From IMG/VR virus record IMGVR_UViG_2585427773_000003: a stretch of DNA of 64,000 nucleotides. One strand, given 5' to 3'. Position numbers and translations under genes: made by a program. Positions within the stretch are counted from its first letter, which is position 1; each line of letters starts with the position of its first letter. Of this stretch, positions 1 to 51,193 are shown in pieces. The notes beneath the pieces are model-generated. The model was not told the DNA's origin. It did not search any database and saw only the letters and a list, made by a program, of their open reading frames with translations. The stretch comes from a virus. Its lineage: Duplodnaviria > Heunggongvirae > Uroviricota > Caudoviricetes.

Positions 1-40
1 GAAACGGAAGGGACTTGTTCTGGTGGTGTCTTTTAAAAGA

Positions 41-97
41 CCTGCTTCCGTATATATTTAATAAGTTACTTATTATTTATATATATACAGAAGCAGG
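41..97. repeat. 57-bp imperfect palindrome, copy 1
   Basis: 8-bp GC-rich inverted arms cctgcttc/gaagcagg flank an AT-rich core with central AATAAGTtACTTATT; near-identical copies at 32891-32945 and 62387-62441. Confidence 0.9.
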
Positions 98-208
98 CAT
101 AACTTGTCGTCTTAGACGCCCAGAAGCTCTACACTTTGAGCCTGTTAAATTGATTAAAAACTTATGTGTAAAATAGAACGCATTAGTCAGTAGCTAAGAG
201 ATGCAATA

Positions 209-976
209 ATGGACGATTTATCGGTATACGCGAGATCATTGGATAAGGCTAAATACTATGTTTACTGTCTCTATGATACAGAAGACAAGATGAAAAGACC
301 GTTTTACATAGGAAAAGGCAAATCGACTCGTTGTCTCGATCACATCAAGTATCCCGATGACTCTCCCAAATCCATGCGGATCAAAGAACTTTTGGCTAAT
401 AAAAAATTAGGCATAGATATACTTCGTCATGGTATGGATGAAACCACAGCCAAACTTGTTGAGGCGACATGCATCGACCTTATGGGGGTCGGAGAGCTTA
501 CGAATAAGGTACGAGGAAGTGGTTCCATGATGGGCAGAATATCACTGGACGCCTACCATCACTTAGTGCTGCAAGAGGAAACTGAAATTGCTCCTGAGCA
601 CGCCGGTCTTGCCTTCCTGCTAAACAGCACCTACAAGTCAGGAATGTCCGCTCTGGCATTATATGAAGCTACGCGTGGCGTATGGGCAAAGGTTCCAAGA
701 GACGAGAATCTCAAATATGCCTACGCTACATATGGTGGGCTGATAATGGAAGTTTATCGGATTGAATGCTGGGTCAAAGCCGGTTCTCAGCAGTACTTTA
801 CAAGGGATATAGCTCTTGGCCCCGACACAAAACGTTATGAATTTGTTGGCAGAATAGCCGATGAGCATATTAGAAAACTGTATGTAGGCAAATTAATCAA
901 GAAACCACCAAGCTACGGTAGCCCTTTTGTGAAGGTTGGGGTGGTTAGGACTGAACATAGTGTTAGCGCGGCATAA
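209..976 (+). CDS. GIY-YIG nuclease domain protein (homing-endonuclease-like), 255 aa
   Basis: N-terminal YYVYCLYD...PFYIGKGK motif typical of GIY-YIG; C-terminal domain unrecognised. Confidence 0.6.
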   Translation: MDDLSVYARSLDKAKYYVYCLYDTEDKMKRPFYIGKGKSTRCLDHIKYPDDSPKSMRIKELLANKKLGIDILRHGMDETTAKLVEATCIDLMGVGELTNKVRGSGSMMGRISLDAYHHLVLQEETEIAPEHAGLAFLLNSTYKSGMSALALYEATRGVWAKVPRDENLKYAYATYGGLIMEVYRIECWVKAGSQQYFTRDIALGPDTKRYEFVGRIADEHIRKLYVGKLIKKPPSYGSPFVKVGVVRTEHSVSAA

Positions 977-1028
977 AGCTGACACTGTAGTTATGCATTG
1001 GCGCAATGTACGCGCCAATGCATGATTT

Positions 1029-1388
1029 TTAACCTTTTTTCATCAACTCTCGTTTGATTTCATCGGTACGCATCGTGACATCGGCAGCTGTGATCGCCTC
1101 GTTAAGTTTCACGATGTCCTCGATTTCCTGCGGTGACTTCTCTGCCAGATGGAAAATGGCTGCGCGAATCACGTCTGAACGGGTGAATTTCTCGAAGCGA
1201 GGGATGAACTTCATCATCTCCAGCAGTTCGAAGTATTCGTCCTCCAGTGACATTGTGCGGCTTTTAATTTTCTCTTTGCCACGAGTCGGGCGTCCCTGTG
1301 GTCTGACTGGTTGGCGCAAAGGAGTTGTGTTCTTAGCCGGTGCATCAGGCTCTTTGCGCTTTGCTAGGTCACCCATTTTCATGGACAT
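1029..1388 (-). CDS. Small partition protein, ParG-like RHH centromere-binding partner of ParA
   Basis: 119 aa, basic disordered N-terminus then predicted strand-helix-helix; start ATG overlaps parA stop (TAATG coupling). Confidence 0.5.
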   Translation of the reverse strand: MSMKMGDLAKRKEPDAPAKNTTPLRQPVRPQGRPTRGKEKIKSRTMSLEDEYFELLEMMKFIPRFEKFTRSDVIRAAIFHLAEKSPQEIEDIVKLNEAITAADVTMRTDEIKRELMKKG

Positions 1389-2056
1389 TATTCTTCTTCC
1401 TCCAGACTCAACAGATAATCTACAAATTCTTCAAACTCGGCTTCCGCCTTTTTGTCGCGCTCGCTACCGGTCATTTCAAAGATAGAGCGACCAGACTCTT
1501 CCGCATCATCATAGACGTTGCGGTTATATAGATTGACTGGCGCAGACTCGATTCCAAACGTCTCAACAATCTCTTTAGCCGCCAGAATGCGAGACACTTG
1601 TGATGGCAAAGCCGGGCACTGGTTCATGACCGCGCGGACCTTCACTTTATCGTTTACATTGCGAACATTGTCGATAATAGGATCGATGTCACGTAAAGAT
1701 TTCAAATCACGACGCTTAGGACGCAGCGGGATAATGATAACGTCAGCCATCAGCATCGCTTGTCGCTGAATTTCGGAGTCGAAGCCACCAGCATCTACCA
1801 CTACAAACTCAGCTCTACCCTGAAGCGATTTTAGGTGCTTAATGATGTCATCCTGAACGTATGCAAAAGGAATCAGCTCAAGGTCTTCGTTCTGTCGACG
1901 GTCTTCACACCAGCTCGTTGTCGTGCGCTGAATATCTATATCGGTAATATAAACCTTCTTCTTCTTTTTGACTTTCAGGCAAACGGCAATTTGCTGGGCA
2001 ACGGTGGATTTGCCAGGCCCGCCCTTTGTGCCGCCAACCACAAAGATCTTGGTCAT
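1388..2056 (-). CDS. parA: ParA-family partition ATPase (small, type Ib-like)
   Basis: Deviant Walker A GGTKGGPGKST near N-terminus, 222 aa; RBS aaggga upstream. Confidence 0.8.
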   Translation of the reverse strand: MTKIFVVGGTKGGPGKSTVAQQIAVCLKVKKKKKVYITDIDIQRTTTSWCEDRRQNEDLELIPFAYVQDDIIKHLKSLQGRAEFVVVDAGGFDSEIQRQAMLMADVIIIPLRPKRRDLKSLRDIDPIIDNVRNVNDKVKVRAVMNQCPALPSQVSRILAAKEIVETFGIESAPVNLYNRNVYDDAEESGRSIFEMTGSERDKKAEAEFEEFVDYLLSLEEEE

Positions 2057-2374
2057 TGGAGAGTTCCCTTTGCGTATATAATTATCGTCTGAAACAACTT
2101 GTTTTCTTATATGTGATATAGCCTAAATGCCTACGGCTGCGGTGTAAAGGTTAAATGGTAGGTTGTGATTAACAATTGGCAAACATAGCTTGTATTTGTC
2201 TGTTGAAAAAAGTAACAATGACATCTATATTACAAGTACGGTGATATGCCGTACACAATTTGATAATGCACACGTAATGGGCTATAGCCTTTTAAAGTAA
2301 TTTTTGAGTCGAAAACTCAGTTTGAACAGAGGAGATTGATGGCCTTCCTACATCACGGCCATCAGGAGGAATAC

Positions 2375-2644
2375 ATGTCAGCACTAAAAAAGCAGCGCAT
2401 CGATTTGAGATTAACCGATGACGATAAAAGCATCATCGAGGAAGCTGCCGCAATGTCTAACCAGAGCATTACTCAGTTTATGGTTAGCAGTGCATCTGAA
2501 CGTGCCGTGAAAGTTATAGAGCAACACCGTAGACTAGTTCTGAATGAAGAATCCTGGAATCTGGTTATGGACGCTATAAGCAATCCTCCGGCACCGAACG
2601 ACAAGCTGAAACGAGCTGCTGATCGTCTGAAAAGCATGGAGTAG
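2375..2644 (+). CDS. ataR: DUF1778 antitoxin (AtaR/TacA-like)
   Basis: MSALKKQRIDLRLTDDDKS...NEESW motif pattern of DUF1778 antitoxins; RBS aggagga; alternative start at 2339. Confidence 0.75.
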   Translation: MSALKKQRIDLRLTDDDKSIIEEAAAMSNQSITQFMVSSASERAVKVIEQHRRLVLNEESWNLVMDAISNPPAPNDKLKRAADRLKSME

Positions 2645-2651
2645 TTTACTC

Positions 2652-3173
2652 GTGAGCAATACAACGATAGAGATTTTCTCTGGAGAGAAAGATTATGATC
2701 TAAACGGTTTTGATTGCGGCGAAGAGTCACTAAACGCCTTTTTAGCCAACCACTTAAAAAGGCAGCATGAGGGAAAAATTCTTCGTGCTTATGTGCTTTG
2801 CACTCAAGAAGAAAGGCCAAAAGTGTTAGGATATTACACTTTGTCAGGTAGTTGTTTTGAAAAGGAGTCCTTACCTTCAAGAAGCAAACAAAAGAAGGTT
2901 CCTTATCGGAATGTTCCAAGTGTTACTTTGGGTAGGCTGGCTTTGGACAAGTCCCTTCAAGGTCAAGGATTTGGCTCAATGCTTGTAACACATGCAATGC
3001 GCGTTGTGTACAATGCATCTCTTGCTGTAGGCATTCATGGACTTTTCGTTGAGGCGTTAAATGACAAAGCCAAGGCGTTTTATAAAAGTTTAGGCTTTAT
3101 CCAGCTGGTTGGTAACAACGAGCGTTCTTTGTTCTATCCTACAAAATCTATCGAAAAATTGTTCGACGAATAA
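2652..3173 (+). CDS. ataT: GNAT acetyltransferase toxin (AtaT/TacT-like tRNA acetyltransferase)
   Basis: GTG start; YDLNGFDCGEE, LGYYTL, SVTLGRLALDKSLQGQGFG motifs as recalled for AtaT-family toxins; 8 nt after antitoxin stop. Confidence 0.75.
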   Translation: MSNTTIEIFSGEKDYDLNGFDCGEESLNAFLANHLKRQHEGKILRAYVLCTQEERPKVLGYYTLSGSCFEKESLPSRSKQKKVPYRNVPSVTLGRLALDKSLQGQGFGSMLVTHAMRVVYNASLAVGIHGLFVEALNDKAKAFYKSLGFIQLVGNNERSLFYPTKSIEKLFDE

Positions 3174-3176
3174 TGT

Positions 3177-3198
3177 GTTCCCCTCATTTGAGGGGAAC
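3177..3198 (+). terminator. Hairpin after toxin gene (weak terminator)
   Basis: gttcccctc-attt-gaggggaac perfect 9-bp stem; poor T-tract. Confidence 0.35.
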
Positions 3199-3205
3199 TT
3201 CGACA

Positions 3206-3421
3206 TCACCAACCACAAACCCTCTCTCCCATCGTATTGTGAAAAAGGATTTGGCGTTCGGTTTCTTCAGTCATTACATCATTATTGCTGATATAGATAG
3301 GCTCAGCCCCATCGCAGAACAACACGCTGGCTGTTTGTGGTTTAATGACGCACCCACTTATCATACAACTCACGATGAACGGCAGAAGCATCTTTCTGAC
3401 GTATTTTACTGCTCGTCTCAT
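3206..3421 (-). CDS. o-spanin (Rz1-like outer membrane lipoprotein), overlapping i-spanin
   Basis: Signal peptide MRRAVKYVRKMLLPFIVSCMISGC with lipobox ISGC; encoded in alternate frame overlapping 3' end of i-spanin gene. Confidence 0.5.
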   Translation of the reverse strand: MRRAVKYVRKMLLPFIVSCMISGCVIKPQTASVLFCDGAEPIYISNNDVMTEETERQILFHNTMGERVCGW

Positions 3422-3593
3422 TCACCACTTTCACTGTGTTTTGAAGTCGTTTTCTGTCTTCCTGTTTTGCCTTCTCTTCCATTGCTCGTCGCGCCGCATT
3501 CCCGCCCATCGTGTAAGCGCCGACAAGAACGAAAAGAACGGCAGCCAGCGTAATCAAAGCAACTTTTAGCTTTGTCATCAGGCTGCCTAGCAT
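3342..3593 (-). CDS. i-spanin (Rz-like)
   Basis: N-terminal TM helix followed by charged coiled-coil-like segment; directly follows lysin gene (TAAtATG). Confidence 0.5.
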   Translation of the reverse strand: MLGSLMTKLKVALITLAAVLFVLVGAYTMGGNAARRAMEEKAKQEDRKRLQNTVKVVNETSSKIRQKDASAVHRELYDKWVRH

Positions 3594-3594
3594 A

Positions 3595-4287
3595 TTAGAC
3601 CATCCCTTTCTGGTGTTTTCTTACCTGCGACCAGGCAATGAATCCTGCCACAACAATAGTGGCAATACCGAAGATGATGCGTACTGTATCCCCGCTAGAG
3701 ATATGACCTTGTGCTTTATCCATAGCAGCGGAAACCTGCGGCATAACATCGGCCAGCTGCGCCAGACCAATACCTGCTGTAACAGTTGCGCCTGCGGTTT
3801 CTTTAGTTACAGGAACAGCCTTCACGGTTTTCACCGGCTTAACAACGCCAGCTCGACGCAGACCTTCCTCAATAACTTCTGCCGCATACCAGGTGTTCAG
3901 CGTTTTTAGCGGGCCTCGGCCATTCTCGTGGCGAATGATTGCCTCAACCAAAGGTCGAAGGATGTCGTAATCATGCAGATCGATGATCATGTCTGCGGTT
4001 ACACCAACGGCTTTAGACACCTCATTAATGTAGGCGTCAGTATTGTTTTCATTCGGCGGTGCCCAGCGTTCAATAACTTCACGAATGGTATCGATACTTG
4101 TGCCGTCTTTTGCGCGACGTTTATCGTGGTAGGTAATTAGAGTCACCGCCAGCGCACGAATCCCCCAAACAGGGTCTTTAAACGTGCAAAAGCGCGGTTC
4201 GGCAGGGTTGTCGATTAGCCCCTGCCACGGCGAACCTTTGTCGAGGTTGCCAGGGTTGTTATTACGAATGCCTCTCGGAGTTTTCAT
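3595..4287 (-). CDS. Putative lysin / peptidoglycan hydrolase-like protein with C-terminal membrane anchor
   Basis: Position in lysis cassette; GIRNNNPGNL motif; C-terminal hydrophobic helix; strong RBS aggaga before ATG at 4287. Confidence 0.45.
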   Translation of the reverse strand: MKTPRGIRNNNPGNLDKGSPWQGLIDNPAEPRFCTFKDPVWGIRALAVTLITYHDKRRAKDGTSIDTIREVIERWAPPNENNTDAYINEVSKAVGVTADMIIDLHDYDILRPLVEAIIRHENGRGPLKTLNTWYAAEVIEEGLRRAGVVKPVKTVKAVPVTKETAGATVTAGIGLAQLADVMPQVSAAMDKAQGHISSGDTVRIIFGIATIVVAGFIAWSQVRKHQKGMV

Positions 4288-4300
4288 CCTTGATCTCCTG

Positions 4301-4624
4301 TTATTGCAGTCCATTCTTCACGCCATAAGCGGCCAGACCCAGCAGCAGCGCGGTAATCAGGAACGACGTTATCTTTGAGATAATGCCGCCAAAGAACCCG
4401 CTGGAGATGGCGTCTAGCCGATTAAGTAGTTTGTCCAGGTTGGAGTGCTGAATGCTGTGTTGCGAAGGCGTCATATCGCCAAAGTAGGTTTTGAGCTGGT
4501 CGTTGACCTCCTGGCCAATTTCCTCACGCAACTCCTTACCTAATTTGCCGACAACTTCACGCGCAACGATAGCGGCAATGCGCTCTACCTGCTCTGGCGT
4601 TACGCCTGCCATCTCGTTCGACAT
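4301..4624 (-). CDS. Putative holin-like membrane protein
   Basis: About 107 aa, single C-terminal TM segment, first gene of lysis cassette; RBS ggagg before ATG at 4624. Confidence 0.35.
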   Translation of the reverse strand: MSNEMAGVTPEQVERIAAIVAREVVGKLGKELREEIGQEVNDQLKTYFGDMTPSQHSIQHSNLDKLLNRLDAISSGFFGGIISKITSFLITALLLGLAAYGVKNGLQ

Positions 4625-4690
4625 TATTTCCTCCATGAATCGTCAAATCGGGATGGCGGTTTTATATCATAAAACGCCCACACTTGGTAG

Positions 4691-4702
4691 GTAAGTACTT
4701 AC
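4691..4702. promoter_or_regulatory. Palindrome GTAAGTACTTAC (late-region operator family)
   Basis: Perfect 12-bp palindrome 55-66 bp upstream of holin-like start; same family as sites at 23868, 43437, 63069 and others. Confidence 0.5.
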
Positions 4703-5538
4703 ACATGAGCGCCGTAAATTGCCCCAACTTTAGTCCAAGTTGGAGCATTACCAGTAACAGCTTTACCAGCTGCTCCGCCGTTATATTCTGTACCGTTACC
4801 TTGAGTATTACATCTTCCTCCAGCAGCACCGACATTACCACCCGAACCGCCTGTATATGCACTAAGAGACCCCTCACCAACAGATCCTTTACCAGGAGCG
4901 GAAATAGTACCAGCAGTTGCACCGGAACTCATATGAGAGGAAGACCCACCAGCACCGAATGGGCGACCACCGCCGCCGCCAAATATTAGTTTACCCCTGT
5001 TACCGCCGCCACCGCCGCCGCCACCTCCAGCGATTGCACCATTATTCGTAATACGCAAGCGTGTACCGATGCCATTATTAATTGCGTTACCACCAGCAGC
5101 ACCGGCAGCGTTACTACCACCATTGCCACCGCGTCCATAGACAGTCACACCTGCGTTGATTACAAGGCTGATATAAGAGTTGGTAAGTGAACTCGGGAAA
5201 TCTAAACATGGCACGCCGCTACTGGACGACACCAGATCCCCTGTAATGGTAACAACGACTGGCGTCGCCCCCTGGGATTTTAAATAGTTGATCAGTGTGT
5301 CTTTGTTGTAGTTATGATTCGCACCGATGCTGTACTGAATTTCCTTAGAACGACCTGCTAACTGAGACATATTCCCAGCAGCAGACAATTGCACCGCCGT
5401 TCGAGCTGCACTCATCCATCTCTGGCCTGTCACACTGACAGCCGAAGACCCAATCCAACCGGGAACACCGACAATTGGCACATCTAATCTCCTTTTTGAT
5501 GTGAATATCCTGAATTGGTGAGGGGGGCCCCTCACCAT
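4699..5538 (-). CDS. Glycine-rich tail-fiber-associated protein (possible receptor-binding tip/adhesin)
   Basis: Immediately follows tail fiber gene with RBS aaggtga; poly-Gly tracts (GGGGGGGGGN) and G/S/N/T-rich composition. Confidence 0.4.
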   Translation of the reverse strand: MVRGPPHQFRIFTSKRRLDVPIVGVPGWIGSSAVSVTGQRWMSAARTAVQLSAAGNMSQLAGRSKEIQYSIGANHNYNKDTLINYLKSQGATPVVVTITGDLVSSSSGVPCLDFPSSLTNSYISLVINAGVTVYGRGGNGGSNAAGAAGGNAINNGIGTRLRITNNGAIAGGGGGGGGGNRGKLIFGGGGGRPFGAGGSSSHMSSGATAGTISAPGKGSVGEGSLSAYTGGSGGNVGAAGGRCNTQGNGTEYNGGAAGKAVTGNAPTWTKVGAIYGAHV

Positions 5539-5547
5539 TCACCTTGA

Positions 5548-8500
5548 TTACATTTTTGCCTTCAGTTCGCGCACTTCCTCGCGCAGCTCTTTGACAGCCT
5601 CGACCAACATGCCGATAACGCCGTTGTAGTTAAGACGCAGACGAGGCTCTCCTGACTGATCGTTATGGTCAACCGTTACCAGTTCAGGCTGAACATTCTG
5701 GACGTCCTGAGCGATGAGGCCGCCAGACTGCTCATACCGGTCACAGACCTGAATCTCGTACAGAACACCTTCGATCCGATCCAGCTTGTCGAGCGCTCGT
5801 TCAATCTTGCGAATATTGCGTTTGCTACGACGGTCAGAGCGGATATAAACGTCATTAAAGCTGCCATTACCGCCACAAACCCAAGTACCATCATTCTGGA
5901 GGTATGCGTTCGCATCCGTGCCGTTTGCGGTACGTGAGTTGTTGATCATGTAAAAACCAAACTGACTGTTTCCCAAGCCACCCAAGAAGAATTTGCGATC
6001 CGCGTGGTCTTGTCTCAACAACGCTTGTGCAGAGCTTGTACTTACAGCGTTCCTCCCGAAGATGACGTTCTGGTTACGCATATCTATCCACGCGCCAGAG
6101 CCGCTGTTGATGGAAAAACGGTTGGCGTAAACCCACGCACTTGACGTGATGTCACCCGTTACACTCAACGGCTTAAGGCTTTGCAGCGTGCTATTAACGA
6201 ACCTAAAAACATGGGCGCTATTGGCGTAAACATCCAGAATGCCATCTCCGTTCTGTTTAAAGCCGGTGTCATTGTCACCCAGAACAATGGAATTACCGCC
6301 AAGAGCACTGGATGTACCGATGCCCAGTGCACCATTCAATTGACCTCCAGATAATGATAACGCCCCAACATCAGCAGCAGTCGGTTTAATGTGCGAACTG
6401 TAAATTACATATACAGTTCCATCTGTCAGGCCTGTTGGTTTATTCGCTGTATAAGTTGGTGATGTATGAATCGTTACGCTGGCGTTACTGGTATAATCCC
6501 ACTGGATATTAACACCTGTGGCGTAATTACCTATTTCTACATAAATGTCATAGGTATCACCGGATGTATTCACCCATGCAAAATTAGTAAATCCAACCGA
6601 GGTCCGTCGCCATAATGCACCAGTAATACCTTTGGGGTTCCCATTTCCTGCACGCAGAACCAGCTCAGAGATGCCTGCTTGCTGCGGGGAGCCAACGTTA
6701 AACCCTGCGCCACCAATCAGGCTTATGTAAACCACGGAACTGGCTTGTGGCATGGTTACAGTTGCCAGCTTGAACCATCCGGCACCACCACTAAAAGACA
6801 TTGTTGCTGAGTTGATCGTGCCTATAGACCTTGGAGTTAGCTCAATGTTTTTAGAACCGTCAAACGACACCCCATTTATAGTTCTAGCGGTTTGTAACTT
6901 GGTCGCTGTCGCTGCATTACCGGTTGTGTTCTGGTTACCAGCAATGTTTACACCCGGCAGGTTGATATTGGCGGAGCCATCGAATGACACGCCGCCTATT
7001 GTGCGTGCTGTTTGCAGTTTTGTTGCAGTTGCAGCATTACCGTTCAAACTACCATTGATGCCGCCAGTAACATTGAGTCCATTACCGATCGTAACAGCAC
7101 CGCTGGTATTATTAATTATAATAGGTCGCAAACCGTTCCATGAACCTAATGTGTCTCCTGATGCTGTTAGCATGAAATATGTGTTCGATCCATCATTACG
7201 GATAAAGAATCCATAGTTGCCATAGGCAATGCGCAGACCATTCGCCGATTTTGAAATAATCTCGCCAGCAGCAGTTAATCCGCCAGTTAACGCTCCTCCA
7301 GAAAGCGATAATGCTCCTACATCAGAAGCTGTTGGTTTGTTTCTAGTGTTATAAGAACGACGCCAGCCTGGCGCATAATCACTCCCATTGTACACATAAA
7401 TAAATTCCGCATTATTAACACCACCATGACCTGATGTTGTTGTCGTTGTAACACGAATAGTGTAGTGGCTTGTTGACTTATTACTAAACACCTCAATCAC
7501 GGAACCAGATAGATCGATCCTACCGCAACCAGTGTCGTCTATATAATTATTGTTGGCGTAAGCCCATGAGCACCGTGCAATCCAATATTTGTTTGAAAAT
7601 GCACCCTGATTATTTAGCCAAGTTATAAATTGAGCAGTCGTAAATGCCGTTCCGTTACCACTATTTAACCATCCAGCGGCAGCGGTTGGCGCGTTTATAT
7701 CAGCCGGCTGAGGCATAAATCCAGTCGTGTAAACCTGCTCCCAACCACTTTCAAAACCATAGCCATCTCTTGAGGAACGGTAGAACAGACCTCCATTTTT
7801 ATAGTGAGCTTTAATTTGAAGCGTACGGCAACTACCTACACCGGTATAAAAGTTGGCAAGAATATAACTTTCGCCTGTTCTAACTACATTGTAAGCACCA
7901 GATTCAGCATTCCACGGCACGCCACCATCAGCATCAGCATATGACCCTGTTGCTCTTCTTGCGAAAGCGGCAACATGCGCGGCGGTTAAAGTAATATCTT
8001 TGGAACCATCAAACTCAACACCAGAAACCCGTCTTGGCGTTTGCAGCTTTGTTGCTGTTAATGCATTACCGTTCAGACTTGCGGACAGTTTGGTTCCAAT
8101 AACCAGTTCGCCGGTTGCGTTATCAATAGAAAACGGTCTTAATGTATTCCAGCCACCATAAACATCACCTTGATTGGTAAGCAGCAGGTGAGTTTTAGCG
8201 CCATCATTACGCCATAATGCACCATACTCCCCACCTATCATTCGAATCTGATTACCACCACGCGCTACAATTTCGTCTGTGGCAAAAAGTTTTTTGCACG
8301 ACAAGTTATCGTTAACGATTAACGAATTAGACTCATAAAAACCACGCCCACTCTTAAAATCAAGGATAACGTCCGCCGCGATACATTCAGTCGCCGGATT
8401 TGTTGCCCCAAACTTATAGGTCGTATCATTAACAACGAGATCAGCACCAGGTGCGGATATTGACAGGCCATCTTCGATAAACGCAAAAACAGGGAAAGCT

Positions 8501-10401
8501 GCGCCATCAACATAGAACACAGAGCGCAAATCATCGCCCTTATTACTCATCATTATTGAGTGGATGGCTCGTTCATTGTTTTGATATTGCCAGAACATTC
8601 CATAAGCATAACGCCCCCTGTCAGTCCAGCCGCCAGGCATAACAAATCCGTTAAACTCGCAGTTATTCATCGGATCGCCTGCGGTTCGCGTTGCCGTGGT
8701 GATAATGACCCTTGATGCCAGTTCGCTTACTGAGCCAGCAGAACGCATAACAACAACAGGGTAATATTTTCCAGATGTTGCACCTGCAGGAGCGTTAACC
8801 CGCACATAACGCATACCACGCTTATCAGCAAAGTCTGTTTTACTGACCGCGTTAATGTTGTTCAGGAAGCGTCCCTTATCGGGTATATCAGCGCCGTTCT
8901 GGTCTTTCTGCAGACGTTTCTCTGCATTGTCATAGGCTGATTTTACTGCCTTTGGCGTTGCCGCCAGCGTTTCAGACGTACTGTTGGTCGCACTGCTGAG
9001 CTGTACTATCCCCTTTTTCGTCGTGCTCGCATCCTCAAGCGCCACGGCGGATGCAATATCCTCTGCCCGTTTTGCCGCTGTCTCGGCGCGCGTTGCCGCG
9101 GATTCCGCCGTACTTTTGCTCTGTGCTGCCGCCGTCGCACTGCCAGCTGCCTCTGTCGCCTTCGTGGATGCTGTCGTGGCGCTGCCCTTCGCTGCGGACG
9201 CTTGTCTGGTCGCCTCATCTTTTGAAGCAGACGCAGATGATGCCGATGACGCCGCCGAACTGGCGGACGATGCGGCAGCCGTTTTTGAGGATTCTGCGCT
9301 GGTTTCCGACGCTTTCGCGTTCGTCTCGGATGTCTTCGCTGCGGAAGCAGACCTCGCTGCTGCGCTGGCCTGTTCAGTGGCTTCGCCAGCCTTCGTTGTG
9401 GCTGTTGAAGCAGACGATGCGGCACTTTCTGCCGATTTTCCGGCGGCGGTGGCACTGGCTGAGGCCTGCCCGGCACTTGTTGACGCGGCACTGGCAGACG
9501 ACGCAGCCGCTGTTTTTGAGCCTGCCGCAGCCGAGGCGCTCTGTCCCGCTGCCGTTTCAGAAGACCTGGCGTTTGTCTCAGACGTCTTTGCCGCCTTCGC
9601 GGAATTGCCTGCCGCCGTTGCCGAGGAAGCGGCACTACTGGCGCTCGAGGCTGCGTTAGTTTCTGATGATTTCGCTGCCTCTTTTGAGGCCGCCGCATCC
9701 CGGGCTGAGGTGGCAGCTTCTGACGCTTTCGTGGTCGCGGTGGATGCAGAAGTGGCTGCAGATTTTTGTGACGCTGCAGCATTCGTTTCAGACGTTTTCG
9801 CGGCACCGGCACTGGTGGCCGCCGCGCTTTTTGAGGACTCTGCAGCGGATGCACTTTGAGACGCTTGAGAGGCTTTTTCTCCAGCGGTATTGGCGCTTTC
9901 TGCTGCTGCGGCAGCACTGGCCGCCGCCTCACGAGCTTTGTCGCCAGCAGCGTCAATCGCGTCGGTGTTATTTTTATACCACTCAACGTTTTCGTTGTGC
10001 TCGTTGACAATCTGTATCAGCGGCTTAACGGTCACTTCTGTACCGTCTTCACGCTCGATTGTCACCTCATCCAGCGCAGTCAACCAACTGCGCATGGACT
10101 TGGAATCAGCCGACATACGCGACATTAGCGCAGTAAAGCGCGCGCTAAACTGTGTTAAGTCGCCTTCATAGGTCGTAATGATTCGGCACGGAACCTCAGA
10201 CTGAGTTTCGCCGGTATAAGGTTCTGAGAGAACAATATTCGTATCGCTTATTACGCGCTTGATCTCATACAGCTTATTGTCGGGGCCAATGACGATCATC
10301 CCCGGCAACACACCATTAGCTGTTACGTTCCAGGCTGTCCCTGCCCCAACCAGAGTATTGCTACCCTGTGTAAATGTGATAGTACCTTCCCTGTACCACA
10401 T
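5548..10401 (-). CDS. Long tail fiber protein with C-terminal intramolecular chaperone (peptidase S74-like) domain
   Basis: 1617 aa; Ala/Ser-rich low-complexity coiled segment; C-terminal SDRRSKRNI...IAQDVQ...VEAVKELREEV pattern typical of self-cleaving chaperone domains. Confidence 0.75.
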   Translation of the reverse strand: MWYREGTITFTQGSNTLVGAGTAWNVTANGVLPGMIVIGPDNKLYEIKRVISDTNIVLSEPYTGETQSEVPCRIITTYEGDLTQFSARFTALMSRMSADSKSMRSWLTALDEVTIEREDGTEVTVKPLIQIVNEHNENVEWYKNNTDAIDAAGDKAREAAASAAAAAESANTAGEKASQASQSASAAESSKSAAATSAGAAKTSETNAAASQKSAATSASTATTKASEAATSARDAAASKEAAKSSETNAASSASSAASSATAAGNSAKAAKTSETNARSSETAAGQSASAAAGSKTAAASSASAASTSAGQASASATAAGKSAESAASSASTATTKAGEATEQASAAARSASAAKTSETNAKASETSAESSKTAAASSASSAASSASSASASKDEATRQASAAKGSATTASTKATEAAGSATAAAQSKSTAESAATRAETAAKRAEDIASAVALEDASTTKKGIVQLSSATNSTSETLAATPKAVKSAYDNAEKRLQKDQNGADIPDKGRFLNNINAVSKTDFADKRGMRYVRVNAPAGATSGKYYPVVVMRSAGSVSELASRVIITTATRTAGDPMNNCEFNGFVMPGGWTDRGRYAYGMFWQYQNNERAIHSIMMSNKGDDLRSVFYVDGAAFPVFAFIEDGLSISAPGADLVVNDTTYKFGATNPATECIAADVILDFKSGRGFYESNSLIVNDNLSCKKLFATDEIVARGGNQIRMIGGEYGALWRNDGAKTHLLLTNQGDVYGGWNTLRPFSIDNATGELVIGTKLSASLNGNALTATKLQTPRRVSGVEFDGSKDITLTAAHVAAFARRATGSYADADGGVPWNAESGAYNVVRTGESYILANFYTGVGSCRTLQIKAHYKNGGLFYRSSRDGYGFESGWEQVYTTGFMPQPADINAPTAAAGWLNSGNGTAFTTAQFITWLNNQGAFSNKYWIARCSWAYANNNYIDDTGCGRIDLSGSVIEVFSNKSTSHYTIRVTTTTTSGHGGVNNAEFIYVYNGSDYAPGWRRSYNTRNKPTASDVGALSLSGGALTGGLTAAGEIISKSANGLRIAYGNYGFFIRNDGSNTYFMLTASGDTLGSWNGLRPIIINNTSGAVTIGNGLNVTGGINGSLNGNAATATKLQTARTIGGVSFDGSANINLPGVNIAGNQNTTGNAATATKLQTARTINGVSFDGSKNIELTPRSIGTINSATMSFSGGAGWFKLATVTMPQASSVVYISLIGGAGFNVGSPQQAGISELVLRAGNGNPKGITGALWRRTSVGFTNFAWVNTSGDTYDIYVEIGNYATGVNIQWDYTSNASVTIHTSPTYTANKPTGLTDGTVYVIYSSHIKPTAADVGALSLSGGQLNGALGIGTSSALGGNSIVLGDNDTGFKQNGDGILDVYANSAHVFRFVNSTLQSLKPLSVTGDITSSAWVYANRFSINSGSGAWIDMRNQNVIFGRNAVSTSSAQALLRQDHADRKFFLGGLGNSQFGFYMINNSRTANGTDANAYLQNDGTWVCGGNGSFNDVYIRSDRRSKRNIRKIERALDKLDRIEGVLYEIQVCDRYEQSGGLIAQDVQNVQPELVTVDHNDQSGEPRLRLNYNGVIGMLVEAVKELREEVRELKAKM

Positions 10402-30889: not shown

Positions 30890-32142
30890 CGAGAACCACC
30901 AAGAATAACACGGTTTTTGACTGGATACCTACGATGTACTGGATAGCCCAATGCGTCTGCACTATGCTCAATGCCACCTGTCTTATCCATATCTCGTGTT
31001 CCAGGCTTGTAGATGACTTTTTCCAGTGAATCAATCAAATGCTTGCACTTCGGATCGATATACAGCCGGATATCTCCAGATGCGGACATCAGCATTCGGT
31101 TAACAGCATTAACACGATCCGCAATTGGCGGGTGCTTTTTCGAATAATCGACACGTAAGAATCCCTTCTCTTTGAATATGTCTACGTCAGACTCCCCACG
31201 AGCATGTTGGCGATAAGCACCTGCCGGATCTGGAAATACCGTTACCTGTGATTTCCAGCGCCAGAAGCGTCTCTCAAGCTCATCACAAACTTCTGCCGTG
31301 TTAGAGGAAAAGAGCACCAATTCATCAATTGCCCATAGCTCACCATTTGGCTGAGGTTGCAAAATTACTGAAGACATCGGGTCAATGTTGAAGTCCTGCC
31401 CTACCCATATAGGCAACCGAGGGTTGAACTGAAGCGGTTTTACATGCACGTTACGATCGAACGGGTAGTAAACGCGCCCGGACATGTTCTCAAAGCTGGC
31501 CAGGTACTCCTGAGCGAACGATTTGGGGTCCATATCGTTCTTAGCAGCTTCAATTTCCGCCGTAGGCACAAACGGAGAATCGGCAGTTACAAACTGCCAG
31601 CTCTTCCACTGTCCCTTTCTTTGCAGCTCTACGTTCTGGCCTATAGTCCACAGTTTGTGAAATTCCGAGAAGCCTTTTGGCGTACCAATGATCAGTGCAC
31701 CGCCGCGTGTCGATGAAAGAGTAGGTCGTAACACCTTGTACCAGGTGTCAGCCTTCATATCCTGAAATTCATCAAGCACTACAAAATGCAACGCTACGCC
31801 GCGCAGAGTGTCAGGCTTATCAGCACCTTTGAGGGCGATCTCCGAACCGTTCTTCAACACGATTGTCATCGTGGTGTCGTTCTTTTTCCTAACCCACTTA
31901 CGAGGCAGAACTTCCTGTAGATCGTCCCACAAAATCTGGCGAGCCATCTGGTAAGTAGGAGCGACATACCAGACCCTTTGCTTTTTTTCCTTTGCCGCCG
32001 CACGAATAATAGTGGAGATCGACAACCGGGATTTTCCCCAGCGTCGACCAGCACAAACAACTTTAAATCGATGCGGAGACTGGAAGACTTTCATCTGTCC
32101 AGAATGCAGTTGCACAAGACTGAGCGAGGACGGGATTGCCAT
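30886..32142 (-). CDS. Terminase large subunit
   Basis: Walker A-like CAGRRWGKS, Walker B VLDE, C-terminal nuclease-like region; 418 aa. Confidence 0.8.
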   Translation of the reverse strand: MAIPSSLSLVQLHSGQMKVFQSPHRFKVVCAGRRWGKSRLSISTIIRAAAKEKKQRVWYVAPTYQMARQILWDDLQEVLPRKWVRKKNDTTMTIVLKNGSEIALKGADKPDTLRGVALHFVVLDEFQDMKADTWYKVLRPTLSSTRGGALIIGTPKGFSEFHKLWTIGQNVELQRKGQWKSWQFVTADSPFVPTAEIEAAKNDMDPKSFAQEYLASFENMSGRVYYPFDRNVHVKPLQFNPRLPIWVGQDFNIDPMSSVILQPQPNGELWAIDELVLFSSNTAEVCDELERRFWRWKSQVTVFPDPAGAYRQHARGESDVDIFKEKGFLRVDYSKKHPPIADRVNAVNRMLMSASGDIRLYIDPKCKHLIDSLEKVIYKPGTRDMDKTGGIEHSADALGYPVHRRYPVKNRVILGGSR

Positions 32143-34145: not shown

Positions 34146-34396
34146 CTGCGCTCGATATTGGCATTGATGAAATCCAGGCGAAGAGACTCCATCGCCCCTA
34201 CCATGACATACGGGCGCCCGCCGTTATGCCAGCAATCAAGAACACTGCCGTCGTTGTTGATCATCAACAGCGCCAGGCTCTGGCTTTTTCCTTCTCTGGC
34301 GTGCTGAAGTGCTTCTTCCAGCAGGCGGATGACTTCCACGTTGTTGTTATCAGTCTCTTTCGATGGCTTCAGCTCTACGATCTTCAAATCAGGCAT
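34142..34396 (-). CDS. Hypothetical protein
   Basis: 84 aa ORF with overlapping start/stop coupling to neighbours. Confidence 0.4.
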   Translation of the reverse strand: MPDLKIVELKPSKETDNNNVEVIRLLEEALQHAREGKSQSLALLMINNDGSVLDCWHNGGRPYVMVGAMESLRLDFINANIERR

Positions 34397-35027
34397 ATTC
34401 CACCTTCACGCGTTCTTTGTAGTGCTTGGTGATCTGCATATCCGGGCGCAGCGCGTTCTTCAGGTCTTCGTGAGTCGTCGCCACCATTACCGTCGCACCA
34501 ACCTTTCGAGCGGCACGCTGGAGGTTAGATGCCACAACCTGAGCGGTTACACGGTCGAGAACAGCGCCGAACTCGTCAGCAGCCCACACTTTAGCGCCTG
34601 ACTCAATCAGTTTGGCAATCTTGAGACGATATTTCTGACCGTCTGACATTTCAGAAGGCTTGCGAACAAACAGATATGCATCGTTCAGACCAGCCATAGA
34701 TAACAACCCAAGCGCATCACTGGTAGTTTTGCCCAGTTGGTCAATGACGTTAACCTCATTATCGAAGGTAAAATCATCGATGGAGGCCACAGATAGCCCT
34801 TCATCCTTCATCTGGTGTTGCAGCTCGCGCAGCACAACGGATTTGCCGGAACCGGATTGGCCGGTAATGTACACCACATCGCCCTGCTTCACTTCCAGCT
34901 CCAGATTGTCGTAAAGCGTCCACTCTTTTTCGTCCAGGCCAAGCCCGAACGACTCAGCGATTTCCAACGTGCGCGTGGTTTTATTTACGCGTGTCTGAAA
35001 CGATACGTTGATGATGTATTTGCTCAT
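34389..35027 (-). CDS. Compact ABC-type ATPase
   Basis: Walker A GQSGSGKS, ABC signature LSDGQKYRL, Walker B VWAADEFGAVLD, H-loop ATTHE; 212 aa. Confidence 0.7.
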   Translation of the reverse strand: MSKYIINVSFQTRVNKTTRTLEIAESFGLGLDEKEWTLYDNLELEVKQGDVVYITGQSGSGKSVVLRELQHQMKDEGLSVASIDDFTFDNEVNVIDQLGKTTSDALGLLSMAGLNDAYLFVRKPSEMSDGQKYRLKIAKLIESGAKVWAADEFGAVLDRVTAQVVASNLQRAARKVGATVMVATTHEDLKNALRPDMQITKHYKERVKVEYA

Positions 35028-35692
35028 GCAGCCATCTCCCCGGAAGAGATCTTCTCCGCATATGCCACAAATGCGTCTACCCCGCTTTCTCCCGTCATTT
35101 CTTCCATGTGGGCAAGCAAATCACCAACAACAATGGCAGAGCCAGCAGGGAGCGTTTTAAAGCCCAATACGTCGACAACACGTACTTCTTCCGCTGCAAC
35201 TTCACGACTGATCTCGGTGTGTTCATCCTTCTGTCGTTTAGTTTCTTCGCCAAGATCGATAACTAGCGAGTCGGTGTCCATTTCTTCTGTCATACTGCCA
35301 ACGAGAACATTCAACTCACGCTCTTCAAAGCCGAAAACCTCGATATCGTCCAGAACAAGCGACTCAAGCTCTTTCTGTAGCTTAATTGCATCGTAATCAA
35401 TGCTGGCAAGTCGGTTATCTTCAAGGCGCTTCGCACGAACCTCGTCATCACTGAGATCATCGCGAACAATAACCGGTACGCGCTCAAGTCCAGCAAAAAT
35501 TGCAGCCTCACGGCGGCCGTGGCCAGTAATAATTACGTCGTTCTTATCGACCGTAATTGGCTGGTCAAATCCGCGCTTTTTAATGGCTGCGGCTAGATCT
35601 CGGATCTGCTGTTCATCATGCTTTTTGGCATTCATCTCATAGGGAATAAGATCTGCCGGGTCGCGATATACGATTTCAAACTTTTTGGTCAT
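35024..35692 (-). CDS. ParB-like nuclease domain protein
   Basis: ParB N-terminal motif ITGHGRREAAIFAGLERVPVIV. Confidence 0.55.
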   Translation of the reverse strand: MTKKFEIVYRDPADLIPYEMNAKKHDEQQIRDLAAAIKKRGFDQPITVDKNDVIITGHGRREAAIFAGLERVPVIVRDDLSDDEVRAKRLEDNRLASIDYDAIKLQKELESLVLDDIEVFGFEERELNVLVGSMTEEMDTDSLVIDLGEETKRQKDEHTEISREVAAEEVRVVDVLGFKTLPAGSAIVVGDLLAHMEEMTGESGVDAFVAYAEKISSGEMAA

Positions 35693-36372
35693 TACATACG
35701 CTCCTTGTAGTAGTCGACCAGCCATACCAGAGCCTCACCAGCGTTCTCCATTTCATTACCGGTGTTAATAGCCTGCTCTTTGATGATGTTTTTTATGGTT
35801 TCTGCAACACGATCTGACGCATCGAAAGTTACTTTGAAGCGCATGGTCTGATGTTCCGCACCCACACGTTCGGTTTTCTCTCGTTTGTCGGTATCGACAG
35901 GCTCATCACTACCACGAGACAACGCCTCCAGTGCTTCAAGGTCGATTGCCGCCTCTTTTGCTAAAACCATCGAGATTTCGTCGTCATACGGGGCGATTTC
36001 AGACAGTTGATAGTCAAGTTCTGACTGAATTTCTTCAATGAAGCGTTGCAATGCGATTTGGTCGTCTTCACCGTATCGCTCGTTGTCCACCAGTGACATC
36101 TGTTTAGCTACGACATCGCTAATTTTGCCCACAGAAAGCACCGGAACCGTTGAAATTCCTTGCTCAATAGCAGCACGCCAGCGATGTTCGCCGCCGAGGA
36201 TTTCAAAAAATCCATCTTCAAGTTCACGAGCCAAAATTGGCTTAAAAAAGCCCAATTTTTCGATAGAACCTTTCAGTTTTTCAAAATTCTGCGCACCAAC
36301 CGAATTGGTGTTCCAGGTATTCGGGCGAAGGTTGGCAACATCAACCTGCAAAATCGTGATTTTTACATCCAT
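35692..36372 (-). CDS. ParB-like nuclease domain protein
   Basis: ParB N-terminal motif ILGGEHRWRAAIEQGISTVPVL; ATG at 36372 preferred over GTG at 36390. Confidence 0.55.
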   Translation of the reverse strand: MDVKITILQVDVANLRPNTWNTNSVGAQNFEKLKGSIEKLGFFKPILARELEDGFFEILGGEHRWRAAIEQGISTVPVLSVGKISDVVAKQMSLVDNERYGEDDQIALQRFIEEIQSELDYQLSEIAPYDDEISMVLAKEAAIDLEALEALSRGSDEPVDTDKREKTERVGAEHQTMRFKVTFDASDRVAETIKNIIKEQAINTGNEMENAGEALVWLVDYYKERM

Positions 36373-36390
36373 TTTATTGCTACAATCCAC

Positions 36391-38363: not shown

Positions 38364-38786
38364 ATGAAATACTCGCTTCTCCCTCTACTAACGTTACCAG
38401 TGTTGATGCTTACCGCGTGCCAATCACGCCCAATATCAATCCATGACGCCAAACCAGCACCGCAGGCCAAAGTGTTCAAGTATCAAAGCGCAGCGCCAGC
38501 TACGTTGGTGGTAATGAGAGACACAGGTTTTGTAGGAGCTGGATGTGATGCTTCCATTTTCATCAACGGCGAAACTGTCGCAAAACTGGCTACAGGCGAA
38601 AAAGCGACTTTCCATTTAAATGCCGGAGTATTAATTGTGGGTGCATCTCTTGAAGGTGCAGGTTTATGTGCTCTAAACCCCGCTCGTCAAGAGCGAGAAA
38701 CGACTCTGAAGAATGGAGACACAAAAGCGTTCAGGGTGTTCACCAGCAATTCTGGTGACATCGACATTCTGCCAACAACTCTGTGA
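38364..38786 (+). CDS. Lipoprotein
   Basis: Signal peptide MKYSLLPLLTLPVLMLTAC with lipobox LTAC. Confidence 0.5.
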   Translation: MKYSLLPLLTLPVLMLTACQSRPISIHDAKPAPQAKVFKYQSAAPATLVVMRDTGFVGAGCDASIFINGETVAKLATGEKATFHLNAGVLIVGASLEGAGLCALNPARQERETTLKNGDTKAFRVFTSNSGDIDILPTTL

Positions 38787-38790
38787 TGAC

Positions 38791-39315
38791 ATGACAACCA
38801 AAGATATTACCTACGGTATCCAAGCTGAACTCTGGCCGCGAGATTACACTAACGTTGAAAAACTACTGATGTTCTGGCGCAGAGAACAAATTCCTGTAAG
38901 GGTCACTCTCGAAGATGGCCAGGCGTTTTGCATGTACGTTTATGGCCTCATGCCATCTCGTAACAAAGTTGACCTTTGCCCAGCCCCTTTTGACAAAGAA
39001 AATCGTATAAGGCTCCCACTTGAACGCATTAGTACAATTGAATCAGGTGTGGTTGACAGTATCGCTCACGATTTCAAAGGTCGACTAACAGTTCACCCTG
39101 ATTATGTCGATAATCGGCCATCACGCCGCGATTTTTTTGCAATTTGCAACCAAGCCTACAAAGCAAACAAATCTATAAGGGTGTACATGGCGGATGGCCG
39201 TGAAATTGAGGGGGTGTCAGCAGGTGCAGATGCTTGTCAGGTTACACTACGTGTCGAGAACGGTAGAAAAATAGTTGTTTTGTTCGATTGGGTTGAACGA
39301 ATTTTGCCTTTTTGA
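38791..39315 (+). CDS. Hypothetical protein
   Basis: 174 aa ORF, ATG 5 nt after lipoprotein stop. Confidence 0.4.
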   Translation: MTTKDITYGIQAELWPRDYTNVEKLLMFWRREQIPVRVTLEDGQAFCMYVYGLMPSRNKVDLCPAPFDKENRIRLPLERISTIESGVVDSIAHDFKGRLTVHPDYVDNRPSRRDFFAICNQAYKANKSIRVYMADGREIEGVSAGADACQVTLRVENGRKIVVLFDWVERILPF

Positions 39316-44314: not shown

Positions 44315-44452
44315 AAAGCAATCCTTAAACATGTTGTTTTCTGAATTGCGTAAACAATACCAGTAAGAAAACGGCCACAAAGTATATCGTTACGGTGTTG
44401 CGCTGCCCGGAGGTTAATAGCGACAAAAGCCACCGTGCTGGTGGCCTCACTC

Positions 44453-44671
44453 TTAATCTTCGTCGCCCGGGAACTCGCTGTGTACCGCGTCCACCAGCTC
44501 CCGCTTTTCATCTTCACTCAGCAGGTGCCAGATATCCTTCCCTTTGGGCGATTCCCCTTCTGCCGGGACGAACGACCACAACTTGCGGTACAACTCCGGC
44601 CCCACTGCATCCAGACACTCAGCCAGGGAATCCACGCCCCACACCTCAACCGTCACAGGCATCTTAATCAT
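44453..44671 (-). CDS. Hypothetical small acidic protein
   Basis: 72 aa; operator-like motif 44704-44718 upstream. Confidence 0.4.
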   Translation of the reverse strand: MIKMPVTVEVWGVDSLAECLDAVGPELYRKLWSFVPAEGESPKGKDIWHLLSEDEKRELVDAVHSEFPGDED

Positions 44672-45049
44672 CTCTTCATCCTCACTTCGTTTATATAACG
44701 TCTAAACATGTTGTTTACTTGTTGGTGTTATTATCGCAATAAGACAAAGGCGGAAAAGGATTTTATTCCGGTGAATGTGGTTTTGGCAGTGAGTTTTCAG
44801 GTTCAGTACCGAGTACACTTTTTACATTATTCTGATTTAGTGGCCGAATGTGGCTGGTGGCAGAGTAATCCTCTCCCCAAAAACCTACTGAAATCGATTG
44901 TGACCCGTTGGCTGTCTGGCACAATTACGCTGTAGCTGGGCATTCAGAGGGAATCCAGCGGTAAGCAAGTCCGCCTACGTGAGCGCCTCTCTTCTTCCCG
45001 CACATTACAGGTGGGTAGCCGCAACTCTCCCTCTCGCTATACCGGTACG

Positions 45050-49508: not shown

Positions 49509-49665
49509 AGTAGGCATTACTTCTTTGTAGTGAAAAGGGGCTTGATAGTAACAAAATGGCCTTATGTCTGCCATGTGATAACAGCATTTCTCATAAATGA
49601 TTAAATGTCGTAGCTGGAGTACACTACAAGGCGACAATTGCGCAAATTAAAATAAAGGAGACGGG

Positions 49666-50803: not shown

Positions 50804-51193
50804 CTACATCACGGGACAATCATCAAACTCGCCACTTCTTGCGTCGTTGATAATGTGAGTGATCACACCAAACACGGCATTGCTGCCCGTGCATCCATCG
50901 TCATCCTTTGGCAATGCTTCCTTCTTACCGGTTCTTAAATCCTCCAGATGCTGACGTGGGTACTTCCGGTATCTTTTTACGCGATATTCCCCATCCAGAG
51001 CGCATACAAGCAGAGAACCATCAACCGGGGTAAGTGAGGAATCGACCACCAGCAATGCACCCTGTAATATTCCCTCACGATGATGACTATCAGCTGCCCT
51101 CATGAAGTAGGTCGCTGAAGGATGTCTAATTATCTGCTGATCAAGAGAAATACGGCTCTCAGCATAATCCGCCGCAGGAGAAGGGAAGCCCAT
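50804..51193 (-). CDS. UmuD-like S24 peptidase (LexA/UmuD family)
   Basis: FPSPAADY...HPSATYF...DS...VDGEY.VKRY pattern matching UmuD; Ser/Lys dyad positions retained; perfect LexA box upstream. Confidence 0.75.
   Translation of the reverse strand: MGFPSPAADYAESRISLDQQIIRHPSATYFMRAADSHHREGILQGALLVVDSSLTPVDGSLLVCALDGEYRVKRYRKYPRQHLEDLRTGKKEALPKDDDGCTGSNAVFGVITHIINDARSGEFDDCPVM

Follow-up and report, generated by a model that had tools for sequence, protein, structure and literature searches.

The window analyzed here, a stretch of 64,000 nucleotides from the virus record IMGVR_UViG_2585427773_000003 (Caudoviricetes), carries at positions 1029-3173 a block of four genes that are probably involved in stable plasmid inheritance. 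Two of them, parA and a small partner gene, form a putative partition (par) operon, and the other two encode a toxin-antitoxin (TA) pair. All four open reading frames (ORFs) are present at these coordinates in the ORF listing, and the features of the block are as follows (aa, amino acids).

1029-1388, minus strand: gene for the ParA partner, 119 aa, a probable centromere-binding adaptor; its ATG overlaps the parA stop codon
1388-2056, minus strand: parA, encoding a 222-aa type Ib-like ParA/MipZ-family P-loop partition ATPase without an N-terminal DNA-binding domain
2057-2166, minus strand: parA promoter/leader block, with a putative -35 TTTACA (2148-2143), a putative -10 TAGGCT (2125-2120) and the palindrome AAACAAGTTGTTT (2104-2092)
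2203-2231, plus strand: predicted sigma-70 promoter of the TA operon, TTGAAA-17-TATATT, matching 10 of 12 consensus positions (a consensus match only)
2375-2644, plus strand: antitoxin gene, AtaR/KacA/TacA family (DUF1778), 89 aa; match to TacA1 at 8.6e-26
2652-3173, plus strand: toxin gene, GNAT, AtaT/KacT family, 173 aa

Our reading, to which we give a probability of about 85%, is that this block serves an SSU5-like phage-plasmid of Escherichia coli as its stable-inheritance module, and that this phage-plasmid is a temperate siphovirus with a low-copy prophage in the form of a circular plasmid of ~108 kb. Over its first 6 kb, the window is 99.4% identical to the circular, 107,648-bp CP053388.1 (Escherichia phage CMS-2020a), 99.3% identical to circular E. 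coli plasmids, 97% identical to phage Cyrano/pLF82 and 87% identical to Salmonella phage SSU5. Over its whole length the window is colinear with CP053388.1 (four blocks, 97.5-99.2% identity) and also with circular E. coli plasmids of 106-120 kb. None of the searched records is identical to it, the distance from CMS-2020a consisting of the divergence just given and a few replaced segments. The records of the relatives are closed circular plasmids, which also carry RepA.

The window has matches in 266 of the 5,426 complete E. coli genomes searched. These amount to 271 places, of which 270 are on plasmids. The sole chromosomal place consists of 329 bp of the gp38 adhesin gene, outside the maintenance block, and the block itself was found on no chromosome among the 5,426 genomes. 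The par cassette is present in 774 plasmid records, mainly from Klebsiella, Escherichia, Enterobacter and Salmonella hosts, and 740 of these records are typed as non-mobilizable. SSU5-related elements are a recognized supergroup of extrachromosomal phage-plasmids (PMC7969092; PMC12977533). The window is the same type of element as members of this supergroup (SSU5, pHCM2 of S. Typhi, Cyrano/pLF82 and CMS-2020a) and has their gene order, in which a helicase/primase module is followed by the parA-partner pair, a variable slot, a lysis cassette and a tail fiber gene.

Cyrano, the pLF82 'plasmid' of E. coli LF82, is by experiment a phage-plasmid with ~5.5 copies per chromosome and makes siphovirus particles (PMC9928086). 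The transcriptome values for a lysogenic Cyrano culture are 50 for ParA, 89 for the partner, 592 for the antitoxin and 344 for KacT, with 133 for RepA, 96 for a putative repressor and 50 for an integrase, compared with about 6-16 for the three non-maintenance neighbors covered (Rz1, CYRAN_31 and a glutaredoxin). These values show that both the par and the TA operon are transcribed during lysogeny in an element 97% identical to the window, and that maintenance genes are thus active while it exists as a plasmid. A preliminary description of this stretch had proposed an extrachromosomal phage-plasmid lifestyle. The colinear circular relatives, the location of the matches on plasmids and the copy number of Cyrano bear this out, although such a lifestyle is already known for the SSU5-type family.

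The ATPase matches the Pfam families MipZ (7e-14), AAA_31 and CbiA, PHROG 164 'ParA-like partition protein' (4e-51) and, over its full length, NCBIfam ParA_partition (E = 1.9e-33; its 115.7 bits are below the 180-bit equivalog cutoff). Its best solved match, over residues 9-199, is ParF of TP228 (E = 1.2e-10), the model type Ib ParA. Like type Ib proteins, it belongs to the class of small ParAs (~200-230 aa), has a deviant Walker A motif of the form KGGxxK[ST] (KGGPGKS, residues 11-17) and lacks an N-terminal DNA-binding domain, and a small partner gene lies directly downstream in the same operon. Both genes of the pair occupy the same genomic position in SSU5, pHCM2 and the Enterobacter, Citrobacter and Klebsiella elements.

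The parA stop codon and the ATG of the partner gene overlap as TAATG, which makes the pair a two-gene cassette and is the usual sign of translational coupling (PGAP places the start of the partner two codons later, at 1382). The two most divergent partner homologs that were looked up, P0030 and P0035 on unrelated contigs, are also encoded directly downstream of ParA/MipZ ATPases, of 222 and 229 aa. As the pair has been kept throughout the supergroup and is also seen with these distant homologs, we conclude that the partner works with ParA, an assignment with far stronger evidence behind it than the fold discussed below. The partner has no Pfam family. It belongs to PHROG 5111 (phrog_5111), where its function is listed as unknown, and when 1.84 billion representative proteins were searched exhaustively with a profile, only 18 cluster representatives came up. 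It is a tiny orphan family, unannotated or mislabeled as a toxin in the records examined. In the Cyrano record, the homolog CYRAN_29 carries the label 'RelE/ParE putative toxin'. In RefSeq, SSU5_034 is cut to 96 aa though the full 119-aa ORF is intact (SSU5 31162-31518; by tblastn, all 119 aa align at 93% identity).

When close and distant members of the partner family are aligned, they share an invariant N-terminal MGDLAK(R/K) peptide, then a Pro/Arg-rich basic linker, and then a core with the motif (K/R)SRT-x-S-(L/M/I)-E-(D/E)-(E/D)-(Y/F)...(S/T)R(S/T)D(V/I)-x-R-A-A. The sequence of this core, at residues ~43-84 and followed by two further C-terminal helices, is like that of a probable ribbon-helix-helix (RHH) domain, with a strand, a helix A and an N-capped helix B. 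The matches that point this way are consistent, and every one of them is sub-threshold. They comprise NCBIfam aCcr1, which we take to be an archaeal RHH regulator (E = 2.3e-4, residues 54-79), Pfam RHH_1 in the divergent homologs P0027 (E = 0.0053, residues 49-85 on model positions 3-36 of 39) and P0035 (E = 0.11), CopG by hhalign, in register (P = 0.018), and ORF56 of pRN1, presumably an RHH protein, also in register (E = 1.2). Pfam searches on 12 close family members gave no RHH match at E values up to 10, and sequence and profile searches of the PDB gave nothing better than E = 0.3. Comparison by hhalign with ParG, omega, RelE and ParE gave nothing (the reference sequences of CopG and ParG were checked against the PDB, and those of omega, RelE and ParE were provisional).

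An AlphaFold2 model of the partner with a predicted local distance difference test (pLDDT) score of 84.5 shows an extended segment and then helices, a secondary structure compatible with RHH, and fold searches with it were non-specific. A first model of the full-length protein (pLDDT 63) was poor, and Foldseek on it was meaningless. Where the preliminary description had named a small ParA plus an RHH partner, the ATPase and a coupled partner gene stand, and the RHH fold, with sub-threshold matches only, is weakly supported.

Upstream of parA, the -35 and -10 hexamers, separated by a 17-nt spacer, are our own reading of the sequence, and the palindrome AAACAAGTTGTTT lies 15 nt past the putative -10. 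The ~110 bp before parA are 85-92% identical in lineages in which parA itself is 77-84% identical, and the central ~72 bp are almost invariant. Judged by these alignments, the parA promoter is under stronger constraint than parA itself. The block at 2057-2166 is the candidate operator and, in this vicinity, the sole candidate centromere. Within it, the CCGTAGGC...TAGGC region is a candidate local centromere and operator, and CCGTAGGCATTTAGGC in the promoter spacer, which occurs once in the window and is partly shared with a distant element (L019), is an alternative candidate for the partner's own site. An Rfam scan of positions 1-6000 revealed no RNA element, and folding of the conserved parA leader gave no stable RNA structure (z = +1.35).

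The TA genes diverge from parA across a 318-bp intergenic region. The antitoxin gene starts at ATG 2375, behind an AGGAGG Shine-Dalgarno sequence and in agreement with the PGAP call in a 99.3% identical record; TTG 2336 is an artifact of the ORF listing. The DUF1778 antitoxin gene lies directly upstream of the toxin gene in the same operon, with a gap of 7 nt. In the PDB, the antitoxin matches KacA (5zgn, 6.6e-42), to which it is 80% identical, and AtaR (6ajm_C, 1.3e-40), and the toxin matches AtaT (6gts, 1.4e-79) and KacT (5xun, 1.3e-74). The toxin aligns with AtaT at 70% identity without gaps, and keeps the acetyl-CoA motif QGQGFG at 103-108 (with G108), the catalytic Y144 and the AtaT positions Y85, R95, L27, F30, H34, R37, S76, S78 and K79/81/82. 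By mutagenesis, these AtaT residues are needed for toxicity, with G108 serving in acetyl-CoA binding and Y144 in catalysis (PMC7595197). The activity expected of the window toxin is acetylation of the alpha-amino group of aminoacyl-tRNAs (PMC7595197), and its replacements R40E, R71K and K77R in the tRNA-contacting surface could alter the tRNA preference. With these identities and the catalytic residues in place, the earlier label of an AtaR/AtaT-like pair proves to be precise.

We suggest the following mechanism. The 119-aa protein would serve as the centromere-binding adaptor of a type Ib-like partition system, with its probable RHH core binding DNA as a dimer, most likely within the conserved ~110 bp before parA, where binding could also allow autoregulation. 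The MGDLAK(R/K) peptide, carried by a basic and flexible linker, would make contact with ParA and stimulate the ATPase, which would distribute the plasmid copies across the nucleoid ahead of division. The TA pair would add post-segregational killing, in which loss of the plasmid lets the labile antitoxin decay and frees the GNAT toxin to acetylate charged tRNAs and block translation. Replication, by a RepA of the Rep3 family, and a tyrosine recombinase would be encoded outside the window.

Several points weigh against a stable-inheritance module of this kind. We found no published partition experiment for the SSU5-type family, and the window has no replication initiator, so that the plasmid state of this molecule is read from relatives at 97.5-99% identity. 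A repeat search around the par operon returned short two-copy matches only, with no iteron or centromere array, and the conserved block upstream of parA could largely be explained as a promoter and an operator common to many other promoters. Two proteins with ParB_N domains (35024-36390) are, in principle, alternative partners for ParA, and GNAT TA pairs may serve persistence or defense rather than addiction. The last two points lead to alternatives of their own. The block is flanked by the following features.

209-976, plus strand: gene for a GIY-YIG protein; Pfam LEM-3_GIY-YIG 5.6e-7, PADLOC PD-T4-3 anti-phage defense 1.6e-23
993-1023: perfect 12-bp inverted repeat, a probable terminator hairpin between the convergent GIY-YIG gene and par operon
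3206-4636, minus strand: lysis cassette (Rz1/Rz spanins, endolysin and holin) adjoining the TA pair, with curated Cyrano and SSU5 homologs

The slot that separates the lysis genes from the parA promoter (about 2167-3205) varies by lineage. In the E. coli lineage it holds the AtaRT-like pair, in a Citrobacter plasmid a diverged allele (toxin 61% and antitoxin 88% identical), and in SSU5, pHCM2, Enterobacter and Klebsiella elements unrelated hypothetical genes. Because the slot content differs between lineages, the TA pair is, on this comparison, exchangeable cargo, and the parA-partner pair is conserved backbone. It is possible, if only as a tentative second view and one compatible with our explanation, that the TA pair is mainly a 'moron' serving host persistence, anti-phage defense or exclusion. 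The PD-T4-3-type gene on the opposite flank of the par operon would suit such a role. This gene sets the window apart from Cyrano and SSU5, and the slot downstream of the par operon contains different genes in Cyrano, SSU5, pHCM2 and Citrobacter relatives. The Cyrano authors also count the TA pair among morons highly expressed in lysogeny (PMC9928086). However, PADLOC has no defense model that matches either TA protein (or ParA or the partner), the pair's closest characterized homologs (AtaRT and KacAT) are type II TA modules of the classical kind, and low-copy phage-plasmids use TA pairs for addiction, as P1 does with phd-doc (PMC7969092).

The ParB_N proteins belong to a minus-strand cluster at 34389-36390, in which two paralogs (33% identical to each other) and an ABC-type ATPase lie beside the terminase genes. 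It seems quite unlikely to us that the true partner of ParA for binding the centromere is one of these ParB_N proteins and that the 119-aa protein has another role. The ParB_N domains are found by Pfam (1.5e-8 and 3.3e-13), PHROG names the proteins 'ParB-like partition protein', and they are conserved in relatives. Yet they lie 33 kb away from parA, where phages typically have ParB-like nuclease or packaging accessory genes, and, whatever their database name of ParB partition proteins, this position suggests a packaging or nuclease role. Moreover, a ParA that is small and has no N-terminal domain is normally partnered by a small protein encoded downstream, and the 119-aa gene, translationally coupled to parA here, accompanies a small ParA gene even in distant elements.

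It is even less probable that the ATPase is a positioning factor similar to MipZ or MinD, which the phage would use, for example, to disturb the division of its host or to place its DNA in the lytic cycle, and not a partition protein. MipZ is the best Pfam match, PGAP names the relatives 'division plane positioning ATPase MipZ', and ParA_partition falls short of its equivalog cutoff. However, the MipZ match spans only residues 4-132, and the PGAP name therefore reflects only the shared P-loop half, whereas the full-length matches are to ParA_partition and ParF. Low-copy plasmids of 108 kb need active partition, and no other par system was seen in the complete relatives. The Cyrano protein CYRAN_99, named 'MinD' and considered as a second ParA, turned out to be the ApbC/Mrp gene product encoded next to metG. 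In Cyrano, parA is expressed in lysogeny along with RepA, which also argues for partition.

The preliminary description had further noted that no integrase or repressor is found in 64 kb. The window is indeed clean: the tyrosine recombinase, helix-turn-helix (HTH) regulator and RepA of the family have no tblastn match in it, and Pfam searches on 50 of its ORFs (all but five of them from the non-structural half, the rest of the structural half being judged by colinear PGAP annotation) gave no integrase and no CI-type repressor. As a property of the element, though, the statement does not hold. Near-identical complete relatives encode a 367-aa tyrosine recombinase (Phage_integrase, 2.9e-10) and an adjoining 128-aa HTH protein ~11 kb upstream of window position 1, so that the absence of an integrase is an effect of the window edge. 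RepA (Rep3 family) lies ~30-36 kb upstream of the window in the relatives, 20-25 kb beyond the recombinase. The search outside the window for repA or an integrase that had been proposed thus finds both in the relatives, and all three genes are on a circular plasmid without chromosomal flanks. The result that had been named as refuting the lifestyle, an integrase and att sites beside the window with flanks from a chromosome, is therefore not what the relatives show.

An integrating prophage, with its integrase and att site just beyond the window, would be consistent with a recombinase beside an HTH regulator, but we consider it highly improbable and essentially refuted. The relatives that bear the recombinase are closed circular plasmids with RepA, and no chromosome among the complete E. 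coli genomes carries the block. Rare chromosomal copies of such elements are viewed as accidental captures (PMC12977533). SSU5, in addition, lacks the recombinase/HTH module altogether, and there a tRNA-Asn gene directly precedes a CobT-like gene. By analogy with Cre of P1, it is more likely that the recombinase resolves plasmid multimers than that it integrates the element. If the HTH protein is the lysogeny repressor, SSU5 may be a derivative unable to establish lysogeny. As for repressors in the window itself, the only family of that name is a FljA-like repressor of phase-1 flagellin (38713-39315, plus strand; Pfam Flag1_repress, E = 2.5e-84), 80% identical to SSU5_121, which could silence host flagellin expression in lysogens. 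A UmuD/HumD-like S24 peptidase (50804-51193, minus strand; Peptidase_S24, 1.6e-9) has no DNA-binding domain, as in HumD of P1.

Finally, the idea that the 119-aa protein is a RelE/ParE-type toxin has the curated annotation of CYRAN_29 in its favor and is scarcely credible, being essentially refuted by the lack of similarity in Pfam, NCBIfam or the PDB, by hhalign E values of 0.83 and 0.74 against provisional RelE and ParE sequences, by a predicted structure that is all-helical after the extended segment, in contrast to the alpha/beta fold of RelE/ParE proteins, and by a gene that is always coupled to parA and paired with no antitoxin gene.

The palindrome in the parA promoter is not specific to the par operon. 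As a 13-bp sequence, AAACAA-N-TTGTTT, it recurs throughout the genomes of SSU5-type elements. With at most two mismatches there are 29 strand-matches in the window, compared with 3.3 +/- 2.1 expected. Allowing at most one mismatch, the window contains 13 sites, the complete CMS-2020a genome 16 (0.37 +/- 0.57 expected) and SSU5 20 (0.2 +/- 0.48 expected). The sites in the window start at the following positions.

2092-2104 (the parA promoter site), 32815, 32840, 42176, 42940, 43843, 44327
44704, 47327, 47378, 54697, 59237, 59966

Nearly all of the sites share one orientation and layout, in which aAGAAAACAA-N-TTGTTT stands 14-15 nt past a -35/-10 pair and 20-80 nt ahead of a start codon. The packaging operon is preceded by two tandem copies. 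Akin to the C1 operators of P1, the palindrome looks like the operator of one master regulator. No paper containing AAACAA-N-TTGTTT was found in the literature. The HTH 'putative repressor' of Cyrano can be excluded as the protein that reads the palindrome, because SSU5 lacks that protein and keeps its sites. A candidate is the partner itself, which is present in every genome with palindrome sites. It could be a dual protein like omega, both a genome-wide regulator that binds the palindrome and an adaptor that makes the dispersed sites a multi-site centromere for ParA. We regard this as rather unlikely, and it is at odds with the lack of an exact palindrome upstream of parA in two distant elements with partner homologs.

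The par cassette has a close counterpart in ParF-ParG-parH of TP228, in which a small ParA gene is likewise followed by a small partner gene. ParG combines a flexible N-terminal tail that stimulates ParF with a C-terminal RHH domain, a layout that the N-terminal peptide, linker and probable RHH domain of the window partner would parallel. However, there is no detectable sequence similarity between the two proteins, the window partner is longer (119 versus 76 aa) and has two extra C-terminal helices, and upstream of the window parA no parH-like array of short repeats was found.

A second comparison is with delta-omega of pSM19035. Omega is the RHH partner of a small ParA (delta) and at the same time a global repressor, and its promoter repeats double as centromeres. 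The window resembles this system in that the parA promoter shares its palindrome with about 13-20 other promoters. On the other hand, the partner showed no sequence similarity to a provisional omega sequence, it is a putative binder of the palindrome, and the sites are single 13-bp palindromes downstream of the -10, whereas those of omega are heptad arrays.

The TA pair has the same gene order, lengths, and catalytic and tRNA-binding residues as AtaR-AtaT of E. coli O157:H7 and KacA-KacT of Klebsiella pneumoniae. The characterized AtaRT and KacAT loci are chromosomal, unlike the window pair, which is carried on a phage-plasmid.

In its overall strategy, the element is reminiscent of P1, another low-copy plasmid prophage with active partition (parAB-parS), a TA addiction module (phd-doc), a tyrosine recombinase (Cre, which resolves multimers at lox) and one operator dispersed over many promoters (that of C1). 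The proteins are nevertheless unrelated, since P1 has a type Ia ParA with a large ParB, other TA families, and another palindrome and binder.

The window carries a full siphovirus complement of genes for structure, packaging and lysis. As noted in the preliminary description, the maintenance genes sit next to lysis and tail genes, the spanin, endolysin, holin, gp38 adhesin and 1,617-aa tail fiber genes adjoining them. The gp38 adhesin was found by Pfam on the window protein, and the tail fiber, tail tip (TipJ), tape measure, capsid, portal, terminase and lysis genes were assigned by transfer from colinear PGAP and curated annotations. Three segments of the window (8013-8924, 44342-44703 and 53494-54388) have no megablast match in the otherwise colinear CMS-2020a. 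They lie in the tail-fiber gene, in the early region and around an Ead/Ea22-like gene (52998-54074), and indicate local mosaic replacement.

Host-like genes at 47475-50766, also present in relatives, encode a methionyl-tRNA synthetase (metG, 720 aa) and an ApbC/Mrp iron-sulfur carrier. The ApbC gene, labeled 'MinD' in Cyrano, is expressed in lysogeny. The presence of a metG copy on the same element as this toxin is a curious coincidence, as the GNAT toxin family was reportedly first described as targeting Met-tRNAfMet.

Phage-plasmids are of importance because they disseminate genes for resistance and virulence in two ways, as viruses and as plasmids. Our main conclusion confirms textbook-level knowledge of a recognized phage-plasmid family. 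At the same time, the protein that would couple ParA to DNA is uncharacterized in a very widespread family, as the counts of E. coli genomes and plasmid records given above illustrate. The apparently undescribed, family-wide and promoter-proximal palindrome, with 13-20 sites per genome, points to a single master regulator, and this regulator would provide a handle on the switch between plasmid maintenance and lytic growth.

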